This document shows positions 8,245 through 24,229 of a stretch of DNA of 24,229 nucleotides, in pieces. The stretch spans positions 1-24,229 of the forward strand of contig CAZDAF010000014.1 in the NCBI GenBank assembly GCA_964503115.1, written 5' to 3'. Source of the stretch: an uncultured bacterium. GTDB lineage: Bacteria > RBG-13-61-14 > CAYWKU01. Made by a program: the position numbers and the translations under genes. Numbering within the stretch: position 1 is the first letter of the stretch; each line of letters begins with the position of its first letter. A model generated the notes under the pieces. That model was not told where the DNA came from, did not search any database, and saw only the letters and a list, made by a program, of their open reading frames with translations.

Positions 8245-8961
8245 GTGAAAAGGTTGCAAAAGGGCGAAACAATCGAAGGCGAGCTTTTGGAGATAATTCG
8301 CGGCCTGAAAGCCTACATGACCTATCAGGCCGAGATCGGGGTCAAGGGATTCGAACGCTCGAATTCCAAATCCGCCGATAGCGAGGTAAATTTGTTGGAC
8401 AAAGACAGACTTACTCTGGAAACTATAATCGAGCGTATGGGCGAATGCACCCGTTGCGATTTGCACAAAGGCCGCAGGCGGATAGTTTTCGGCGCCGGAC
8501 CCGAGAACGCCGAGATTATGTTCGTCGGCGAAGCGCCTGGAGCGGAGGAAGACCGCCAGGGCGTGCCGTTTGTGGGCAGAGCGGGGCAGCTATTGACGAA
8601 AATTGTCACGGCCATGAAGTATTCCCGGCAAGAGGTCTACATCACCAACGTAAACAAGTGCCGCCCGCCCAAAAACCGCGATCCTCGACCGGCGGAAGTT
8701 GCGGCTTGCGAGCCTTTCCTGATGCAGCAGATACAGGTGATCAAGCCGAAGGTCATCATCGCTCTGGGCAGGTGGGCCGCACAAACGTTGCTTAAAACAA
8801 ATACCGCCATCGGCGGATTACGCGGCAAATTCCACGATTATCACGGAATACCCCTGATGCCTACGTATCACCCGGCGGCTATACTCAGAAATCCGAATCT
8901 CAGAAGACCTGTCTGGGATGACATGCAAAAGGTTATGAAACTTCTCGGGAAGGAACCTTGA
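8245..8961 (+). CDS. uracil-DNA glycosylase, family 4 (Fe-S cluster type)
   Basis: Cys ligands are CTRCDLHKGR…C. The signature motifs are IVFGAGPENAEIMFVGEAPGAEED…GVPFVGRAGQLL and a C-terminal HPAAILRNP. The start is uncertain: GTG at 8245 as in the ORF track, or ATG at 8317. Confidence 0.85.
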   Translation: MKRLQKGETIEGELLEIIRGLKAYMTYQAEIGVKGFERSNSKSADSEVNLLDKDRLTLETIIERMGECTRCDLHKGRRRIVFGAGPENAEIMFVGEAPGAEEDRQGVPFVGRAGQLLTKIVTAMKYSRQEVYITNVNKCRPPKNRDPRPAEVAACEPFLMQQIQVIKPKVIIALGRWAAQTLLKTNTAIGGLRGKFHDYHGIPLMPTYHPAAILRNPNLRRPVWDDMQKVMKLLGKEP

Positions 8962-8962
8962 T

Positions 8963-10339
8963 ATGAACAAATATTCGAACATACGCGGTTTAATTGTGAC
9001 GGTTTTTCTGTCGGCTTTGGTGGGAGTATCCGTTTGGGCCATGTTGCCGACTGAAGCTCTTTCGACGGAAACGGAAGCATCGCCTCCGGCCACCGGCGAG
9101 AGTGAAAAGCCCCGGACGATTTACTACCTGAAGGTGAAACACGCCATCACGCCGGCGGTAGCGGATTATATCGTCGCAAACGTGCAACGCGCCAACCGCG
9201 ACGGCGCCGAATGCCTGGTGATAATGCTCGATACTCCCGGTGGGTTGTTGGAAGCGACGCGGGAAATCGTCCAGAGTATCTTCTCTTCCAGTGTGCCGGT
9301 GGTTGTTTATGTTGCGCCGAGCGGCGCCCGAGCCGGCAGCGCGGGAGTATTCATCACGATGGCCGGACACGTCGCTGCTATGGCCCCGGGCACGAATATA
9401 GGCGCCGCGCATCCCGTCGGAGGGTCAGGTGAGGATATAAAGGGCGACATGCGCAAAAAAGTCGAAAACGACGCCGTCGCTCAAATAAAATCGTGGGCGC
9501 AACAGCGGGGACGAAACGTCGAGTGGGTCGAGCGGGCGGTCAGGGAAAGCGTTTCCATCACCGATAAGGAGGCTATCGAGAAGAACGTTGTCGAAATAAA
9601 CGCCGTCGATCTGGCGGATTTACTGAAAAAAATAAACGGCCGTGAGGTCGAGGTGTCCGGCGGAAAGAAGGTGAAGCTGAACACCCAAGACGCCCAAAAA
9701 GTCGAGTTGAAGATGAGCCTTAAACAACTGATCGTAAGCACCATCAGCGAGCCGAACGTCGCATATATACTGCTGCTGATAGGCATGCTCGGCCTCTTTC
9801 TCGAATATGTGCACCCCGGAACGCTTGTCCCCGGTATTATCGGTGGAATATGCATTATACTCTTCTTCGTGGTGCAGACGATGCCGATAAACTACGTGGG
9901 GGTGGCATTGATAATTTTGGCGGTGGGCTTCTTCATAGCGGAGATATTCATCACAAGCTTCGGGCTGCTCACCATAGCGGGGTTGACATGCTTTGTCATA
10001 GGCGCGGTTCTGCTGTTCGACACCCCGACAAGCACTGTGAGTGTGTCATGGTCGGTGATCATTCCGGGAGTGGTGGTGATGGCGCTGGCGTTCCTGCTGG
10101 CGGGATTTTTAATTCTCAAGACGCAGCTCGCAAAACCTTTGGGAGGCAAGGAAGGGTTGGTTGGAGAGTTCGCCGAGGCGCGAACCGACCTCGATCCCGT
10201 CGGGTCGGTGTTTTTCCACGGAGAATTCTGGACGGCCCATTCCCAAAAGCCCGTAAAGGCCGGCGGCAAGGTCAAGGTGCTCAAGGTCGAGCACATGAAA
10301 ATCGAGGTCGAACCGGTGGAGGACGATAATGGCGATTGA
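8963..10339 (+). CDS. NfeD-family membrane-bound serine protease (ClpP-class; stomatin operon partner protein, long form)
   Basis: There is an N-terminal signal/TM segment, a ClpP-like domain (…LVIMLDTPGGLLEATREIV…VYVAPSGARAGSAGVFI…), a multi-TM region and a C-terminal OB-fold NfeD domain (…ARTDLDPVGSVFFHGEFWTAHS…KVKVLKVEHMKIEVEP). It begins 1 nt after the udg stop. Confidence 0.85.
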   Translation: MNKYSNIRGLIVTVFLSALVGVSVWAMLPTEALSTETEASPPATGESEKPRTIYYLKVKHAITPAVADYIVANVQRANRDGAECLVIMLDTPGGLLEATREIVQSIFSSSVPVVVYVAPSGARAGSAGVFITMAGHVAAMAPGTNIGAAHPVGGSGEDIKGDMRKKVENDAVAQIKSWAQQRGRNVEWVERAVRESVSITDKEAIEKNVVEINAVDLADLLKKINGREVEVSGGKKVKLNTQDAQKVELKMSLKQLIVSTISEPNVAYILLLIGMLGLFLEYVHPGTLVPGIIGGICIILFFVVQTMPINYVGVALIILAVGFFIAEIFITSFGLLTIAGLTCFVIGAVLLFDTPTSTVSVSWSVIIPGVVVMALAFLLAGFLILKTQLAKPLGGKEGLVGEFAEARTDLDPVGSVFFHGEFWTAHSQKPVKAGGKVKVLKVEHMKIEVEPVEDDNGD

Positions 10340-10634
10340 TTCGACGATATTATGGACGGTAGTCACCGTAGTGTTTTTAACGGTCGGCTTGGTGGTGTTA
10401 ACGCTATATTACTTTTTCAGGGAGCGTAAAGACAAGCCGATAGGCGGCAGGCCGGCGCTTTTGGGCGAGATAGGCGTGGCCCGCACGGACCTCGATCCCG
10501 AAGGAAGGGTGCTGGTGCACGGCGAATGGTGGAACGCGCGCGCCGATGAACGGATACCGGAAGGCACAAAAATCCGAATAATCGACGCGGATAAAATGAT
10601 GCTCAAAGTCGAACGCGCACCGGAGGACGCATGA
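10329..10634 (+). CDS. NfeD-like short form (single TM plus C-terminal OB-fold domain)
   Basis: The 101-aa product has one TM helix followed by …GVARTDLDPEGRVLVHGEWWNARADERIPEGTKIRII…, a paralogous repeat of the C-terminal domain of the preceding gene. It overlaps the long nfeD by 11 nt. Confidence 0.7.
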   Translation: MAIDSTILWTVVTVVFLTVGLVVLTLYYFFRERKDKPIGGRPALLGEIGVARTDLDPEGRVLVHGEWWNARADERIPEGTKIRIIDADKMMLKVERAPEDA

Positions 10635-11473
10635 CCTCTAAATCCCGCAGTTCCCTTAAAAGCGAATATGGGAACCAACGAGCCTATTTGGCGCGGGTAG
10701 CCGCTAAAAGAGAAAAGAGAATTTGTAAGATTACAGATGTATTGAAGGAAGCTTTTTCCGGATACATTCGCAGAGAAATCGCAGAATTTATATATTTTTC
10801 TGAAATATCCGGGGAGGAACTGGCAAAAGCGTTCTTCCAATATCCTGAAGTGTTGAAACCGGTGTTGAGTTTATGCAATGTTGCGGCAAGGGCATTGGAA
10901 CGTGACCTGGACATAAAAAATTTAAATACTTACAACCCGAGGTTAAACGAAGTAAATGCCTCTATCCTTGCTGGTTATATCAAGCCGATGCTGCCAGAAA
11001 GAACAGCTATAGAGTCATTGGTTGAAATTGATCGCATCTTTTATATCGATAAGGAAATCAGAAAAGAAAAAGGTGCTTGGGAAAAGGACATACTACTTGC
11101 TTTGAACCGCCATGGAAAGCAACAATTTCGGAAAAGGAAGTTTAACTGGAAGGGAGATATGTTTGAGCTTGATGCTGCCAGTCCCGAGGATGGCAAAATT
11201 AAAGTCGGTATTGACATCAAGCGAGTGGAAGCGAGAAGAGATATTCACAAAAGATGCGATGAGATCTTTACCAAAGCTGAAAAATTCAAAGGAGTATTTC
11301 CACGTGCTTCATTTGGAGCGGTAATATATTATCCTTTTGTAGAGGAACAACAGAACATCAGGGATAGACTAAGGTCAAGTAATATCGATTCAGTCGTTTT
11401 CGCGTCTGAAAAGGAAACTTCTATAACTCAAGCGGTAAAATTGTTATTGGGCAAGGTGAAATGGAAAAAGTGA
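10631..11473 (+). CDS. hypothetical protein; candidate Type II restriction endonuclease (PD-(D/E)XK-like) of an R-M pair
   Basis: The 280-aa ORF is in low-GC DNA. Its ATG overlaps the TGA of the upstream gene (ATGA), and its 3' end overlaps the downstream DNA methyltransferase by 13 nt. It contains the motif MFELD(181)-x13-GID(195)IK(197), consistent with a PD-(D/E)XK catalytic core. I recognised no other family. Confidence 0.4.
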   Translation: MTSKSRSSLKSEYGNQRAYLARVAAKREKRICKITDVLKEAFSGYIRREIAEFIYFSEISGEELAKAFFQYPEVLKPVLSLCNVAARALERDLDIKNLNTYNPRLNEVNASILAGYIKPMLPERTAIESLVEIDRIFYIDKEIRKEKGAWEKDILLALNRHGKQQFRKRKFNWKGDMFELDAASPEDGKIKVGIDIKRVEARRDIHKRCDEIFTKAEKFKGVFPRASFGAVIYYPFVEEQQNIRDRLRSSNIDSVVFASEKETSITQAVKLLLGKVKWKK

Positions 11474-12342
11474 CCCAACAAATATCCGATTCAAATATCC
11501 ACACTACGCACCGATTGGTGCTCGGGGACGCTCGGGAAATGGGGTTCCTTGATGATGGATCGATTCACTTGGTTGTGACTTCCCCTCCTTACTGGAACCT
11601 GAAAAAGTATAATGAACATCCCGAGCAACTCGGCAACATGGATGATTACGAGGAGTTCTTGGGGGAAATTGAGAAAATATGGCGGGAATGCTATCGGGTT
11701 CTTGTTCCCGGCGGTAGGTTGGTATGCGTGGTCGGGGATGTATGTTTATCTCGTCGCAGGCATGGCAGACACGTGGTGGTTCCGCTTCATGCGGATATAT
11801 GCGTCCAATGCCGGCACATCGGTTTCGATAATCTTAATCCTATTATATGGTCCAAGATTTCCAATGCCAGTTACGAGGTGGAGCGAGGGTCGAAATTTCT
11901 TGGTAAACCTTATGAACCAAACGCGATCATAAAAAATGATATCGAGTTTATTTTAATGCAGCGTAAGCCGGGAGCGTATCGCAAACCTACGGCTGAGCAA
12001 AGGCACTTGAGCCGTATCAGCAAAGAGGAATATCCTCTTTGGTTCCGGCAATTCTGGGATATAACCGGCGCTTCCACCAGGGATCACCCCGCGCCTTTCC
12101 CGATCAAGCTGGCGTACCGACTGGTAAGGATGTTTTCTTTTGTGGGCGACACTGTTCTCGATCCTTTTTGTGGTATGGGCACAACCATGGTGGCGTCTTA
12201 CCGGGCGGGTCGAAATTCCATCGGTGTCGAAATTGATCCGCAATACATCAAATTGGCCCGCAGCAGGTTGAGGAAGGAAATTCCGAGTCTTTTTAAAGAC
12301 GCGAATATTATCGAAGAGCAACATGCGGCGCAGACGAAATAG
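11461..12342 (+). CDS. DNA methyltransferase, beta-class N4-cytosine/N6-adenine (N6_N4_Mtase, SPPY type)
   Basis: Motif IV (HLVVTSPPYWNL) precedes motif I (VLDPFCGMGTTMVA). This beta-group order is shared with M.PvuII/M.BamHI-like enzymes. SPPY favours N4-cytosine specificity. Confidence 0.85.
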   Translation: MEKVTQQISDSNIHTTHRLVLGDAREMGFLDDGSIHLVVTSPPYWNLKKYNEHPEQLGNMDDYEEFLGEIEKIWRECYRVLVPGGRLVCVVGDVCLSRRRHGRHVVVPLHADICVQCRHIGFDNLNPIIWSKISNASYEVERGSKFLGKPYEPNAIIKNDIEFILMQRKPGAYRKPTAEQRHLSRISKEEYPLWFRQFWDITGASTRDHPAPFPIKLAYRLVRMFSFVGDTVLDPFCGMGTTMVASYRAGRNSIGVEIDPQYIKLARSRLRKEIPSLFKDANIIEEQHAAQTK

Positions 12343-12357
12343 CAAGGAAACTCAAAC

Positions 12358-12555
12358 ATGGAAAAAGTAGTGGTAAGGCGATGTGAGACTTATGATAAGG
12401 ATTTCATAAAGTCCATGATCCGGGAGGGGATGGAGGAGTTGGGTTTCAAGCCGACGGGAAAGGCCATTATCAAGCCCAACACCGTTTACGCTCACAAGCG
12501 TTATGCCACTATAAGTCCGCACGGAAGGAAAGCGCTTAATCTATTGAAGGCGTGA
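12358..12555 (+). pseudogene. truncated N-terminal remnant (65 codons) of a DUF362-family gene
   Basis: MEKVVVRRCETYDKDFIKSMIREGMEELGF…GKAIIKPNTVYA resembles the conserved N-terminus of DUF362 proteins (…KV.F.K...YD.E.v..ai...l..LGG....IKPG..VLIKPNLv), which are normally 300-400 aa. Here the frame stops after 65 codons, 67 nt before the next gene. Confidence 0.45.
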
Positions 12556-12597
12556 TAGTTCAGGTTCATAAAGAAACTGAGCTTGGAAGTTTAACTT

Positions 12598-12620
12598 AAA
12601 AAAGAGGAAGGAGGAAGAGG
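12598..12620 (+). promoter_or_regulatory. purine-rich ribosome-binding region (AAAAGAGGAAGGAGGAAGAGG) for the stomatin-like gene
   Basis: A GGAGG core sits about 8 nt upstream of the ATG at 12623. Confidence 0.6.
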
Positions 12621-12622
12621 CA

Positions 12623-13426
12623 ATGGAATTTTTTAACCCTATTCTTTCAATCGGAGCGGCGGGACCACAATTTATTGTACCGATAGTCATCATCGTTTTC
12701 CTGCTCATGAGCATGATAAAAATCATCAAGGAGTATGAACGGGCGGTGGTGTTTCGACTGGGTAAATACGCCGGAGTGCGCGGCCCGGGGATCATTATCA
12801 TCATTCCGATAATCGAGCATGTCGAGCAGCGTATAGACATGCGCACCATACCGCACGATGTTCCACCGCAGGACGTCATTACCAAGGACAACGTTTCGAT
12901 AAAGGTCAATGCCGTTGTGTTTTTCCGCGTCATGGACGCTGAAAAGGCGGTCATCGAGGTCGTCAACTGGTACATGGCTACGAGCCAGTTGGCCCAGACC
13001 ATGCTTCGCAGCGTGCTCGGTGGGGCGGAATTGCAGGATATACTTCAGGAGCGCGAACAACTGAATATGGAACTCCAGAAAGACCTCGATATCCATACCG
13101 ACCCCTGGGGCATCAAGGTAAGCGCCGTCGAGATCAAGCACATAGACTTGCCTCTCGAGATGCAGAGGAGCATGGCCGCGCAGGCCGAGGCCGACAGGGA
13201 GCGTCGGGCGAAGATCATACATGCCGACGGCGAATTCCAGGCGGCGCAAAAGCTTCACGAAGCCAGCGATGTCATTTCAAAAAATCCGGTGGCATTACAG
13301 CTTCGCTTCCTGCAAACTCTGGCCGAAATCGCGACAGAGAACAGCTCGACAATAGTATTCCCGGTTCCCATAGACATTCTACGAGCGTTCACGAACCTTA
13401 TGGAAGGGAAGGGAAGTTCGGCGTAA
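12623..13426 (+). CDS. SPFH/band-7 family protein, prokaryotic stomatin (slipin)-like
   Basis: There is an N-terminal TM helix, then [13 protein letters not shown]…GPGIIIIIP…[18 protein letters not shown]…[15 protein letters not shown]…[18 protein letters not shown]…[17 protein letters not shown] align this closely with archaeal/bacterial p-stomatins such as PH1511. Confidence 0.9.
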
Positions 13427-13464
13427 AAGATTAAAGAGACTTTTTCTGAAAAGCCTCATCGGCT

Positions 13465-13668
13465 TTGGCTGTTATGCTCAAGCAATTCGCAGTAATTTTA
13501 GGGGCAATCCTGGTAATCGAGGGGTTGCCCTACCTGGCCGCTCCGTCATGGATGAAGAAGATGATGGAGCAGGTGCGCCTGCTGCCGGACACATGGTTGC
13601 GGATAGCGGGCATGACGGCGGTCGCGGTGGGTTTGGCAATCGTATGGTATGCCGGACACATGGATTAG
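13465..13668 (+). CDS. DUF2065 (YjeT-like) small membrane protein
   Basis: The 67-aa product has two TM segments (…ILGAILVIEGLPYLAAP…MTAVAVGLAIVWYAG). It resembles the yjeT family, which follows hflK-hflC in enterobacteria; here it follows a stomatin-like gene. Confidence 0.55.
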   Translation: MAVMLKQFAVILGAILVIEGLPYLAAPSWMKKMMEQVRLLPDTWLRIAGMTAVAVGLAIVWYAGHMD

Positions 13669-13694
13669 GATTGAGTTGACGCAGTGCGAATTTC

Positions 13695-14819
13695 ATGATA
13701 AACATACTTTATCTTAAAAACTGGTTGCACCCTCTGGTCGGATTACTGCTGACCGTTTTTTCGTCAGGGGGAGAAGCAGAGGGCGTAAAACTCAAGGTGG
13801 TCATAGCGGAAGGGGCGCCCAAAGTGGTGGTATCCGGCGAGGGGCTTGGCGTTAAAGTTGCCGGCAGGAAATGGCATCCTGGAAATCGCATCAAGATAAA
13901 GACGCGAGGAAAAGCCCTCGATATTGGCGGCAGGACGTTCCGCAAGCCGGTTCGAGTGACCACCGACGCGGATTTCCTGTATGTTGACGGCCGGCAATAC
14001 AGGGGGGATATAATCGTTCACGGCGGTAAGGGCGGCCTGCTCGTCGTGGATGAGTTGCCTTTGGAAACTTACCTGGTCGGGCTTATAAACGCTGAAGCGC
14101 ATTCAAGTTGGCCTCGTGAAGCCATAAGGGCGCAGGCGGTCGCCGCCCGATCTTATGCGATGCTTCGAATCGACCGGAGCGGGTCGAGGTCTTTTGACCT
14201 GCGAGCCACAGTGGCCGACCAGGTATATCTGGGCAGCGCGCTTGAAGATCCCGCAGCAGCCGATGCTGTGCGAAGCACTCGGGGGGAAGTGTTGAGCTTC
14301 GGCGGCCGGGTTGCAAAGGCTTTCTATCACTCGACATGCGGCGGTCGTACCGCCGGTGTGAAAGAGGTTTGGGGAGGGGATTTTCCTTACTTACGCAGTG
14401 TCGAATGCGATTGGTGCCAGGAGAGTCCTCGCTACTTTTGGCGTTATCAGATCGATGGAATGAAGATAAGCGCCGCGTTGGCACGTAGCGGTATCAAGGT
14501 CGGATCGGTGAAGGAGATAAAAATCGTCGGTAAAACCCCAAGTGGTCGAAACGACAAGGTAAAAATCGTCGGAGGCGGTCGCAATAAAATTATAAAAGCC
14601 TCGACCTTGAGAAAAACGCTCGGATATACGAACATATTCTCAACGCGCTTCGAGGTTTTCGAGCCGGATGCGGGGAAATTCCTCTTTATGGGAAGAGGAT
14701 CCGGTCATGGAGTGGGGATGTGCCAATGGGGAGCAAGAGGCATGGCGGCCCTGGGTAAAAAGTACCGCGAAGTTCTGCTTTATTATTACCCGGGATGCTC
14801 CATTATGAAAGCTTATTAG
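13695..14819 (+). CDS. SpoIID/LytB domain protein (lytic transglycosylase / amidase enhancer)
   Basis: Family-typical blocks include …YLVGLINAEAHSSWPREAIRAQAVAARSYA…FYHSTCGGRT…GHGVGMCQWGA. Confidence 0.85.
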   Translation: MINILYLKNWLHPLVGLLLTVFSSGGEAEGVKLKVVIAEGAPKVVVSGEGLGVKVAGRKWHPGNRIKIKTRGKALDIGGRTFRKPVRVTTDADFLYVDGRQYRGDIIVHGGKGGLLVVDELPLETYLVGLINAEAHSSWPREAIRAQAVAARSYAMLRIDRSGSRSFDLRATVADQVYLGSALEDPAAADAVRSTRGEVLSFGGRVAKAFYHSTCGGRTAGVKEVWGGDFPYLRSVECDWCQESPRYFWRYQIDGMKISAALARSGIKVGSVKEIKIVGKTPSGRNDKVKIVGGGRNKIIKASTLRKTLGYTNIFSTRFEVFEPDAGKFLFMGRGSGHGVGMCQWGARGMAALGKKYREVLLYYYPGCSIMKAY

Positions 14820-21152: not shown

Positions 21153-21644
21153 ATGCACATTTTCTGGTTGGTGCTGGGGGCTATCGTATATTTCGCCGTC
21201 TGCATAGGCGGATTGTTATTGCTTGTCATCGGTCTGCCCGGATTGTGGCTGATAGTCGTATCGAGCGCGGTTTTTGCGTGGGCCACCGGAGGCGCTGCGA
21301 TTCCCTGGGCGGCGGTGATAGTGTACGGCTTGCTTTCCGCCGGCGCGGAAATCTTCGAAGCCGCCGCAGGGGCTTGGGGAACCAAGAAATACGGCGGATC
21401 GAGATGGGCGATGGCCGGAGCGATTCTGGGCGGCATTGTCGGGGCGATTTTCTTCTCGATAATTGGCGCCTTCGCGGGAGCGTTTCTCGGCGCGTTCGCC
21501 TTCGAATACGCATCAAACCAGGACTTCAGGCAAGCTACTTCAAGCGGTAAGGGGGCTTTTCTGGCTCGGTTGGTAGCAGTGGTGGTAAAAGCAAGTCTCG
21601 CCGTTTCGATGATGATATCTTCCTTTGTGTTTATAGTTACTTAA
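21153..21644 (+). CDS. DUF456-domain membrane protein
   Basis: A 163-aa product with four hydrophobic helices and a central GAWGTKKYGGSRWAMAGAILGG motif. An AGGAG Shine-Dalgarno lies upstream. Confidence 0.55.
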   Translation: MHIFWLVLGAIVYFAVCIGGLLLLVIGLPGLWLIVVSSAVFAWATGGAAIPWAAVIVYGLLSAGAEIFEAAAGAWGTKKYGGSRWAMAGAILGGIVGAIFFSIIGAFAGAFLGAFAFEYASNQDFRQATSSGKGAFLARLVAVVVKASLAVSMMISSFVFIVT

Positions 21645-21672
21645 CGGTAAAATGCAAATACCGGGTGATTGA

Positions 21673-22641
21673 ATGACGCGAGCGCCACGAAACCGCACGA
21701 TAACATTATCGGACGACGAAAAGGAAAAGTATGGTAAAAGCCTGATAAAAGTAAGTGATGCGGTTTCGTTGGATCAAGTACTGAACAGAATTGTTAATCA
21801 AGACATTTTTCAAGTGCTGGACTTTTTACCGTCGGAATTTGTAGACCTGCTCTTTATAGACCCACCCTATAACCTGACTAAAGCGTTCAATAAACGTTCG
21901 TTTAAGCAGGTGTCAACGGAAAAATATGTGGAATGGATGGACTCTTGGCTTCAAAAAATGACAAGGCTGTTGAAACCTACGGCATCGATATATATCTGTG
22001 GAGATTGGCGGTCTTCTGCGGCCATTAATCTCGTTTGCGAGAAGTATTTCAGGGTCAGAAATAGAATAACGTTTGAGAGAGAAAAAGGAAGGGGCGCAAA
22101 GAAGGATTGGAAAAACAATTCCGAGGATATTTGGTTTTGTACGGCTTCAAAAGACTATTATTTTAATGCGGAAGCGGTTAAATTAAAGAGGAAAGTAATT
22201 GCACCGTATCGCGAAAATGGGGAACCCAAGGATTGGAAAGAAGAAGATGAAGGGAAATACAGGCTGACCCATCCATCAAATATCTGGACGGATATAACCA
22301 TCCCTTTCTGGTCCATGCCGGAAAATACCCCCCATCCCACGCAAAAACCGGAAAAACTTCTGGCGAAGATTCTTCTTGCAAGCTCAAAGGAAGGAAATGT
22401 CGTTCTTGATCCGTTCGCCGGCGTGGGAACTGCGGGAGTTGTGGCAAGGAAACTTAAACGAAATTTCGTTATGGTGGAGGTGGATGAAGAATATTGTCTA
22501 CATGCCATGAAGAGATTGGAGATGGCTGAAAATTATCCGGATATTCAGGGATATTATGACAAAGTATTTTGGGAAAGAAATACATTGATGGAAATAAAAT
22601 CCAAGGATAAAAAAGAGGTGAATGCCGGAATTTTGCAATAA
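21673..22641 (+). CDS. DNA methyltransferase, beta-class N6-adenine-specific (DPPY type); solitary, with no endonuclease partner visible
   Basis: Motif IV (LLFIDPPYNL) comes early. HPTQKP and motif I VLDPFAGVGTAGVVA lie near the C-terminus, a CcrM/M.HinfI-like order. The gene is visibly AT-rich relative to its neighbours. Confidence 0.85.
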   Translation: MTRAPRNRTITLSDDEKEKYGKSLIKVSDAVSLDQVLNRIVNQDIFQVLDFLPSEFVDLLFIDPPYNLTKAFNKRSFKQVSTEKYVEWMDSWLQKMTRLLKPTASIYICGDWRSSAAINLVCEKYFRVRNRITFEREKGRGAKKDWKNNSEDIWFCTASKDYYFNAEAVKLKRKVIAPYRENGEPKDWKEEDEGKYRLTHPSNIWTDITIPFWSMPENTPHPTQKPEKLLAKILLASSKEGNVVLDPFAGVGTAGVVARKLKRNFVMVEVDEEYCLHAMKRLEMAENYPDIQGYYDKVFWERNTLMEIKSKDKKEVNAGILQ

Positions 22642-22772
22642 TGACATCGTTTTTTCTTTCCCGGGTGTTTAATAGATAACCCCATACTTTTAGGGAATAA
22701 AAGGCAAATATGATGAACTCGTAAAAACGTCGTTTTCTCACTTTTTGCATACACAAGAAAAAAGAGTTTAAA

Positions 22773-24229
22773 ATGAAGGATGTTGCAGTAAATCGGGTGT
22801 GGAAACTTCATCGGCCCGATGAGAAGCTTGTCGAACGGCTGGTGCGCGGTGTGGGGTTGACCGATCCGCTGGCGCGCCTTTTGATAAATCGCGGTATCAG
22901 CGAAGAGCATGATGCCCTGGAGTTTCTCAATCCGTTGCTGAGTAATCTTCCGCAACCTGATTCCCTGCCGGACATAGAAGCAGCCACCCAACGAATTATA
23001 CGCGCTATAAGGGATGGGGAAAACATAGTTATTTACGGCGATTATGACGCCGACGGCATAACGGCCACCGCGTTGCTGGTGAGTTTCCTCGAAAGCGTCG
23101 GCGCTCGCGTCGATGCTTACCAGCCCGACCGCATCAAGGAAGGCTACGGACTTAACGTTGAAGCGCTCGGCGAGCTGCATTCTCGAGGCGTCAAGCTGGT
23201 TGTGGCGGTGGATTTGGGAGTTTCGGACGCCGACGCGGTGGATTGGGCGTCGTCAAGGGGCTTGGACGTCATTGTGGTAGATCACCACCAGCTTCCGGAC
23301 AATTTGCCGGAGGCGCCGGCGGTTGTGGTTCCCTTGAGATCGGAAGAAGCCGAGCCTTTCCATCCTTTATGCGGAGCCGGATTGGCGTTTTACCTGGCAG
23401 CGAGTTTGAAATCGAGCCTGCTGGACGAAAAGTTCTTCAATAAGGATGAGCCGGATATGCGCCGCTATCTCGACCTGGTGGCGCTCGGTACGATAGCCGA
23501 CATGGTGCCTCTGGTCGGATTAAACAGGATATTGGTCACGCACGGCCTCAAGGAGCTTGGCGCGGAACGAAGACCGGGAATAGCGGCTCTTAAAGCTCGG
23601 GCGAAACTGGATCGCAAAAGGGTCAACGCCGGGCAAGTGGCGTTTCGGCTTGCGCCGCGCCTGAACGCCGCAGGTCGCATGGATGACGCATCCGTGGCGG
23701 TAAGGCTGCTGGTTACCGATGACCGCAAGGAAGCTCGTTTATTGGCCGGGCGTCTCGAAGACTTCAACCGGGAAAGGCAACAGGTCGAAACTCGCATACT
23801 GGCCGAGGCGATGGATATAATCGAAAAAGAGAATATGAAAGAACGCCCTGCGATGGTGCTGGCATCTGAGAATTGGCATCCGGGCGTTGTCGGGATAGTG
23901 GCGAGCCGAATTGTGGATGCTTTTGCGGTACCGGCGGTGGTCATATCGCTCGATGGTAACGATGGCAAGGGAAGCTTGCGCAGTGTGCCGGGAGTGAACG
24001 CCTGGCAGGCGATGCATGAATGCCGCGATTGCCTCGAAAGATACGGCGGCCATAAAATGGCAGGGGGATTGTTCATAAAGCGAGATGCACTGGGCGCATT
24101 CGGCAAATGTTTCTGCGAAGCGGTTAGCAGGTCGGAGTTTACGGCGCACGCGCGAAAACTGGCTATCGATATGGAACTGGACCTGGATGATATAGACGCA
24201 GCCCTGGTGCGCCAACTCGATCAACTTGC
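22773..24229 (+). CDS. recJ: single-stranded-DNA-specific exonuclease RecJ, 3' partial (runs off the window)
   Basis: DHH motifs …IVIYGDYDADGITATAL…, …VVAVDLGVS…, …VIVVDHHQLP… are present, and a DHHA1 region begins near the window end. The frame is open to the window end. Confidence 0.9.
   Translation, partial: MKDVAVNRVWKLHRPDEKLVERLVRGVGLTDPLARLLINRGISEEHDALEFLNPLLSNLPQPDSLPDIEAATQRIIRAIRDGENIVIYGDYDADGITATALLVSFLESVGARVDAYQPDRIKEGYGLNVEALGELHSRGVKLVVAVDLGVSDADAVDWASSRGLDVIVVDHHQLPDNLPEAPAVVVPLRSEEAEPFHPLCGAGLAFYLAASLKSSLLDEKFFNKDEPDMRRYLDLVALGTIADMVPLVGLNRILVTHGLKELGAERRPGIAALKARAKLDRKRVNAGQVAFRLAPRLNAAGRMDDASVAVRLLVTDDRKEARLLAGRLEDFNRERQQVETRILAEAMDIIEKENMKERPAMVLASENWHPGVVGIVASRIVDAFAVPAVVISLDGNDGKGSLRSVPGVNAWQAMHECRDCLERYGGHKMAGGLFIKRDALGAFGKCFCEAVSRSEFTAHARKLAIDMELDLDDIDAALVRQLDQL

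Follow-up and report, generated by a model that had tools for sequence, protein, structure and literature searches.

A pair of overlapping genes at positions 10631-12342 of the stretch analysed here (24,229 nucleotides, positions 1 to 24,229 of contig CAZDAF010000014.1 from an uncultured bacterium; hereafter the window) is probably a horizontally acquired Type II restriction-modification (R-M) system that has long resided in its host and would be expressed as part of a housekeeping operon. The first gene, R (10631-11473, + strand), encodes a 280-aa candidate Type II restriction endonuclease (REase) with a predicted PD-(D/E)XK fold. The second, M (from 11461 or 11470 to 12342, + strand), encodes a beta-class amino-methyltransferase with an SPPY motif, probably specific for N4 of cytosine (PF01555, E 5.7e-42). 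Both genes lie between host genes for two NfeD proteins and the host gene for stomatin. The upstream operon member nfeD-long (458 aa, 8963-10339, + strand) has the Pfam domains NfeD1b_N, NfeD_membrane and NfeD; it is followed by nfeD-short (101 aa, 10329-10634, + strand; PF01957, E 1.6e-15), which has a native GC content of 0.549. Downstream, stomatin (SPFH/Band_7; PF01145, E 1e-36) occupies 12623-13426 on the same strand. The gap from nfeD to stomatin is 1,988 nt (10635-12622), so that nfeD is not immediately upstream of stomatin, and the nfeD-stomatin operon is here interrupted rather than absent. The GC content falls to a minimum of 0.39-0.41 at 10751-11500, compared with about 0.53-0.57 on either side. 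By gene, R has a GC content of 0.40 and a third-position GC content (GC3) of 0.39, and M has 0.49 and 0.54, whereas the GC3 of the flanking genes is 0.57-0.72, about 0.65. The initial annotation of this DNA had described an AT-rich, R-M-like cassette inside the nfeD-stomatin operon, and both the sliding-window GC and the identity of the two genes agree with that description.

The M protein matches the Type II methyltransferase (MTase) models of PADLOC (MTase_II) with an E of 1e-66. Its motifs are intact and stand in the beta-class order, SPPY at residues 41-44 preceding the FxGxG-type DPFCGMGTT at 234-242. N4-cytosine enzymes usually carry SPPY, and not DPPY. The protein is 64% identical over 262 aa (E 1e-115) to TTHA0409 of Thermus thermophilus HB8 (PDB 2zie). 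Judging from these motifs and this homology, M most likely makes N4-methylcytosine (m4C) at a short specific site.

The product of R, left unrecognised in the initial annotation, has no match in Pfam (also at E<=10), NCBIfam, PADLOC or PHROGs, and tblastn of the protein against plasmids and phages returned nothing. A fold can now be assigned to it. The AF2 model (pLDDT 89.6) has BsoBI as its top Foldseek match, with a probability of 0.98 and an E of 7.8e-3. Among the fold matches, PspGI scores 9.4, BsoBI 9.3 (169 residues aligned), Cfr10I 9.2 and BstEII 9.2 (178 aligned), followed by Bse634I (8.7), BsaWI (8.5), AgeI (8.1) and MunI (8.0); other PD-(D/E)XK nucleases, Can2 and NucC, are interleaved among these restriction enzymes. 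R has at least 640 homologues (90%-identity clusters, E<=1e-3) in bacteria and archaea, mostly of about 273 aa and about 55% identical. They are labelled hypothetical where they are named at all, the named ones being from WOR-3, Poribacteria, Thermoplasmatales and further archaea. In the family alignment, 56 columns are invariant. Among the invariant residues, D140 and E142 belong to a long helix, E179 and D181 share a strand and D195-x-K197 is part of the strand after it, beyond which the strongly conserved RIEARRDIHKRCDEI follows. In the model this arrangement has the PD-(D/E)XK layout of a nuclease core, and every invariant residue of the family is intact in the R of the window. Sequence identity to NgoMIV, Cfr10I, Bse634I, PspGI, BsaWI, AgeI, BsoBI and BstEII is just 9-14%, and the profile of the BsoBI family, PF09194 (Endonuc-BsobI), does not match the protein, which places it outside that family. 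Judged by its predicted structure, the 280-aa protein has the restriction-endonuclease fold and belongs to no named REase family. We also considered membership in the CCGG family of REases. In these enzymes the catalytic Lys and the R-(D/E)-R motif used for recognition are spaced as K-x3-R-x-D-R; R has K197-R-V-E-A-R-R-D, which is off this spacing, and the assignment was rejected.

The two genes are linked throughout the family. In four homologue loci on long contigs, R is directly followed by a PF01555 gene. A further 80 loci from metagenomes have the cognate M (64-76% identity with M of the window) directly downstream wherever the contig continues; the exceptions are two loci with the order M-R and four in which the contig ends before M. 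The two genes usually overlap by 4 nt. In other words, R and M are adjacent and co-inherited. Because this near-invariant pairing is accompanied by the fold of R and the motifs of M, we regard the pair as a Type II R-M system, in which M would methylate a short specific site, shielding the host chromosome, and R would cut the same site when it is unmethylated. Elsewhere the pair is found in quite different surroundings (loci collected in this analysis carry L numbers): before valS (L004), after uvrD (L006), after a histidine kinase (L008) and, in L010 (5001-6703), between gyrB and gyrA, where the gyrB stop and the start of R share 1 nt and the end of M and the start of gyrA share 11 nt. Similarly tight R-M junctions are seen in L107/L108, L118 and L164. 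No NfeD or Band_7 gene stands beside the pair in the homologue loci for which called genes were listed; the family of the 280-aa protein is thus not associated with stomatin elsewhere. The GC content of the pair is usually 0.05-0.25 below that of the local flanks, in hosts ranging from 0.34 to 0.70 GC. Family neighbours are co-oriented with the pair in approximately 70-80% of cases and junctions are tight in about 5 of 45, which are rough proportions only, since the neighbour survey relied on a crude open reading frame (ORF) heuristic (it miscalled gyrA of L010). As tight junctions are a minority, embedding in operons appears to be recurrent but not universal. No conserved cassette ends were found across the family.

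Two further arrangements of these methyltransferases are worth recording. On an archaeal-labelled contig (L006/L124, 5867-7015), the cognate methyltransferase is 382 aa long and has a C-terminal PF11731 (Cdd1) extension. On the Paraburkholderia terrae plasmid pPT65 (L172; NZ_AP025261.1, 20435-24045), a 57%-identical methyltransferase adjoins a site-specific integrase, and after it come an unrelated hypothetical gene, a gene for a DUF262 protein and one for a HEPN-like nuclease; methyltransferases of the TTHA0409 type therefore also travel with other partners.

A possible recognition site was suggested by the distribution of palindromes. In carrier loci totalling 558 kb, no palindrome is more depleted than CAGCTG, with 48 sites observed and 125 expected (O/E, the observed-to-expected ratio, 0.38). 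Its O/E is 0.69 in 831 kb of non-carrier loci, relative to which it is also the most depleted palindrome. The 24-kb window has no CAGCTG site (2.7-6.5 expected), and the site is absent from L003, a related locus considered below. CAGCTG is the site of the PvuII system, whose methyltransferase, M.PvuII, is like M of the window a beta-class enzyme, in its case an N4-cytosine MTase. The two methyltransferases align only in the C-terminal AdoMet-binding region (residues 206-269, E 7e-8), and the target recognition domain (TRD) of M.PvuII has no detectable similarity to M of the window. R.PvuII is a small enzyme that looks unrelated, and a C-protein, which was not seen at the window locus, is part of the PvuII system. 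A specificity shared with PvuII is a weak lead rather than a result.

How long the pair has been in place can be judged from two diverged relatives that carry it at the same site. In L003, stomatin is 90%, R 77% and M 85% identical to the window counterpart; in L012, whose contig begins inside R, stomatin is 82% and M 73% identical. The R and M genes of the window, L003 and L012 co-diverge and are reciprocal best matches within the family, supporting a single ancestral insertion. Synonymous divergence of the window from L003 has reached or nearly reached saturation, with a dS of 0.8-1.6 in the flanks. The dN/dS of M is 0.087 and that of stomatin 0.083; for R, dS is saturated and gives no estimate, and its dN of 0.136 falls among the values for the flanking genes. 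The pair was therefore inserted long ago and has been maintained, as diverged relatives share it and its amino-acid divergence is no higher than that of the genes around it. An old insertion was also what the initial annotation had favored. The pair would have landed directly after the nfeD-short stop codon, before stomatin, in an ancestor shared by at least three species-level lineages, and would have been inherited vertically since. Relatives carrying the genes at native GC would have spoken for another origin, but in these relatives the genes are still AT-rich: the GC3 of R is 0.39-0.40 both in the window (10631-11473) and in L003 (5263-6105), compared with 0.61-0.79 in the flanks.

Several observations weigh against this interpretation. 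Nothing at the sequence level ties the 280-aa protein to any characterised restriction enzyme: searches of PDB sequences with the single sequence (phmmer) and with a profile of a 43-member alignment gave chance-level matches only. Restriction enzymes having no detectable sequence relatives are common. For the methyltransferase, the passages on TTHA0409 in the papers searched do not state its modified base, target site or gene neighbours. The R proteins of the window clade form a divergent branch. They share 54-57% identity with the other members, in a family whose alignment has a mean column identity of 67%, and their N-terminus is different; for these reasons the activity of R in the window may be altered or reduced. 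The persistence of low GC3 in R despite saturated dS runs contrary to simple amelioration. Finally, CAGCTG as the recognition site is only suggestive, as the depletion is confounded by phylogeny and by redundant loci.

Some of these points would fit an alternative in which M has been domesticated as an epigenetic or regulatory, effectively orphan methyltransferase, made together with the products of this membrane-quality-control operon, and its 280-aa nuclease partner has decayed or been repurposed. The pair has been kept vertically for a long time inside a housekeeping operon, its R belongs to the most divergent branch of the family, with both N-terminus and start codon remodelled, M is better conserved than R (85% versus 77% identity to L003) and the fold matches of R include nucleases that are not restriction enzymes. 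However, inactive R genes normally decay fast into pseudogenes, whereas here all invariant residues, including E179, D181, D195 and K197, are intact, the dN of R does not exceed that of its neighbours, its ORF is full-length in both lineages where it is visible, and the overlapping codons of R and M have been retained in all three lineages. We therefore consider domestication improbable and prefer a complete R-M system.

The foreign origin of this R-M pair is evident from comparison with the usual order of genes. In a stomatin-based synteny scan, restricted to one genome per species and returning 80 loci, about 75 of 79 distant loci, from many phyla, have nfeD-long shortly before stomatin, as a rule no more than about 100 nt away, and no R-M genes occur between the two in these approximately 75 genomes. 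Many of the loci share the order UDG-nfeD-stomatin, and in the window, too, the UDG gene (8245-8961, + strand) is the first of the packed, co-oriented run. That nfeD and stomatin are normally adjacent, as previously supposed, is thus borne out in distant genomes. In the distant relatives it is nfeD-long that adjoins stomatin, and nfeD-short is absent. The dip in GC and GC3, the unrelated contexts of the family and the direct succession of nfeD and stomatin elsewhere together indicate that the pair was acquired horizontally.

A native stomatin-associated module, with its low GC content resulting from functional constraint, would account for three diverged lineages having R-M genes at the same position and the same low GC, and for the unameliorated GC3 of R at saturated dS. 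It is nonetheless very unlikely, since genomes of many phyla have nfeD followed by stomatin with no R-M genes between them, the same pair occurs in unrelated neighbourhoods of bacteria and archaea (gyrB/gyrA, valS, uvrD) where listed genes include no NfeD or Band_7 neighbour, and a sister strain, described below, holds a different cassette at the site. An assembly chimera of R-M, nfeD and stomatin contigs might be suspected, given that the source is a metagenome assembly and composition changes sharply at the junctions, but it can be dismissed as extremely improbable, because junction-spanning sequence is identical in independent assemblies (both junctions at 100% identity in ENA, JGI and three Logan runs) and the diverged L003 and L012 show the same arrangement.

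The acquired R-M pair is joined to the operon almost seamlessly. As noted in the initial annotation, the ATG of R overlaps the TGA of nfeD-short (ATGA): it is built from the last codons of nfeD-short, GCA TGA, and a CCGGAGG of nfeD-short provides a Shine-Dalgarno-like GGAGG 4 nt upstream. The ATG belongs to the end of nfeD-short rather than to the cassette, because the sister strain keeps GCATGA without a window-type R. Most members of the R family have their own leader, typically GGAGGATATAAAATGCC, and a protein start of the form M-P-x-G-Y-G; R of the window clade lacks the family leader and has 7-8 extra N-terminal codons. Upstream, nfeD-long and nfeD-short overlap by 11 nt. Downstream, the start of M overlaps the stop of R in the window, L003 and L012. 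Two start codons of M are candidates, an ATG at 11461 with a 13-nt overlap and a GTG at 11470 with a 4-nt overlap (GTGA). The homologous start is probably GTG 11470, as the position of the 4-nt overlap matches most family members and L003 (which has ATG there); L012 uses the ATG 11461 start. Thus, of the earlier description of a beta-class SPPY methyltransferase overlapping R by 13 nt, class and motifs stand, and the overlap is probably 4 nt. Between 8000 and 14000, promoter-like matches are no more numerous than chance would give, and no terminator-like site was found on the + strand from the start of nfeD-short to the end of stomatin. The codon overlaps and the lack of an obvious promoter support the proposal that the cassette sits in the translation register of the operon. 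Probably a single transcript from the promoter of the UDG-nfeD operon would drive both R and M, and translation is probably coupled via the overlaps along nfeD-long, nfeD-short, R and M. Stomatin itself is preceded by its ancestral leader of about 115 nt (12509-12622, + strand), which is common to the window, L003 and L173 of the sister strain, includes CTGAGCTTGGAAGTTT and ends in a strong AAGGAGGAAGAGGCA-ATG ribosome-binding site. This leader could hold a promoter or regulatory element specific to stomatin.

No integrase or transposase gene is present in the gene list within 10 kb on either side, and the search for flanking direct or inverted repeats and for a target-site duplication gave only short repeats at chance level, all in keeping with the initial annotation. 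An Rfam scan of 10000-13800 yielded nothing credible. We also asked if the cassette could have been inserted with a long target duplication, nfeD-short being the duplicate. This was rejected, as the two copies of the NfeD C-terminus are in tandem on one side of the cassette and 36% identical. nfeD-short deserves a remark of its own. It is an extra gene with respect to the approximately 75 distant genomes, which carry only nfeD-long directly before stomatin, and shares 36% identity with the C-terminus of the nfeD-long beside it and up to 47% with nfeD-long C-termini elsewhere. A long and a short NfeD before one stomatin looks unusual.

The same site carries a different cassette in a sister strain, represented by two short contigs of one sample (ERZ23491059), L174 and L173, which were not shown to be physically joined. 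L174 matches window positions 10191-10634 at 97.3%, and the match ends exactly at the nfeD-short stop codon. After the stop comes a spacer of 136 nt and then a different MTase-like gene (weak PF01555, E 9e-5). Within the spacer, at 538-565 of L174, there is a sigma-70 promoter matching at 11 of 12 positions (TTGATA, 16 nt, TG, TATAAT), of a kind that the window cassette lacks. The first part of L173 belongs to a different nuclease gene, truncated by the contig start, which has a PD...EVK motif and weak matches to PF09194 (BsoBI) and PF09571 (XcyI). L173 then matches window positions 12294-12467 at 95.4%, that is, the last 49 nt of window-type M plus the DUF362 piece discussed below, and positions 12509-13875 at 93.3%. 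The novel parts of both contigs have a GC content of about 0.38. The simplest reading of these matches is that a second M-R cassette replaced the segment corresponding to window 10635-12293 (+ strand; breakpoints 10634/10635 and 12293/12294), leaving a 49-nt stub of the old M. The sister strain would thus have exchanged its pair for another M-R cassette having its own promoter, and the nfeD-stomatin site appears from these contigs to be a swap hotspot.

Between M and the stomatin leader lies a lineage-specific insert of about 170 nt (12343-12508, + strand), which is missing from L003 and L012 in the alignment. It contributes the first two-thirds of a 65-aa ORF (12358-12555, + strand) with homology to the N-terminal part of DUF362 proteins. 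The initial annotation counted this truncated DUF362 fragment as a third gene of the cassette. The 65-aa ORF has no match in Pfam (PF04015) or NCBIfam, tblastn against the collected loci found nothing and a word-indexed search returned only a strain variant. Exhaustive phmmer with the ORF, on the other hand, detected 113 proteins at E<=1e-3. In nearly all of the 113, the best-scoring stretch aligns ORF residues 1 to about 50 with the N-terminus of the protein or a region near it, and all ten full-length matches tested have PF04015, beginning at about residue 37-44. The ORF is therefore a gene fragment and not a member of DUF362, because only the approximately 50 residues preceding PF04015 are present. 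It is also indel-variable between strains (65 aa versus 91 aa). The contexts of the best DUF362 matches (L180, L181) gave no clue to the donor. Thus, the fragment is genuine but does not belong to the cassette, which consists of two genes only; the piece is most likely a non-functional recombination scar specific to the window lineage and separate from the R-M unit.

As for the rest of the window, stomatin is followed on the + strand by genes for DUF2065, SpoIID and GAF-GGDEF proteins. A second low-GC island (GC 0.40-0.44) lies at 21500-23000, downstream of secDF/DUF456. Here, the product of ORF 21673-22641 (+ strand) is a PF01555 methyltransferase (E 2.5e-43) of 322 aa that has a DPPY motif. 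It is followed by no convincing partner ORF; a 208-aa ORF on the minus strand (22554-23180) has no Pfam or PHROGs match. This island may be an orphan or degraded R-M locus.

One might go further and propose that the 280-aa protein founds a large REase family that is the missing partner of the crystallised but functionally unassigned TTHA0409-type methyltransferases, possibly as a CAGCTG m4C system, that the pair repeatedly plugs into housekeeping operons by start/stop overlap with no promoter of its own, as with nfeD-short/R here and gyrB-R-M-gyrA in L010, that the site is a hotspot of exchange between strains and that the low GC3 of R is a selected brake on its expression. We regard this extended proposal as a whole as speculative and rather doubtful. 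Even so, the analysis assigns a function, at the level of fold, to a widespread family of proteins annotated as hypothetical and gives the family of TTHA0409 methyltransferases a candidate partner.

How does the window pair compare with systems described earlier? TTHA0409 (PDB 2zie/2zif/2zig), termed a putative beta-class N4-cytosine MTase in the literature (PMC5173035), resembles M of the window in the SPPY motif, the order of motifs and the PF01555 domain. M of the window, for its part, is paired with a nuclease gene and located inside an nfeD-stomatin operon. R-M systems in general have been described as mobile units that insert into operon-like clusters or substitute genomic regions (PMC2993543; Kobayashi and colleagues). 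The case reported here is similar in being a two-gene unit with no linked integrase or transposase, placed in line within a co-oriented housekeeping cluster, and in that a different R-M system has apparently taken its place in a sister strain. It differs in having no long target duplication or flanking repeats, in being old and common to three lineages, and in that the start of R is taken from the last bases of a host gene. The event is thus real but fairly ordinary in kind, and the understanding of R-M systems is unchanged by it. What is specific here is a large family with the REase fold, for which four profile libraries hold no model, tied to the TTHA0409 type of methyltransferase, together with a seamless junction that borrows the last codons of the host gene, long retention at low GC3 and the likely replacement at the strain level. 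In other words, the window offers a clean, dated case of an R-M pair that has long been resident in a housekeeping operon and not in a defence island.

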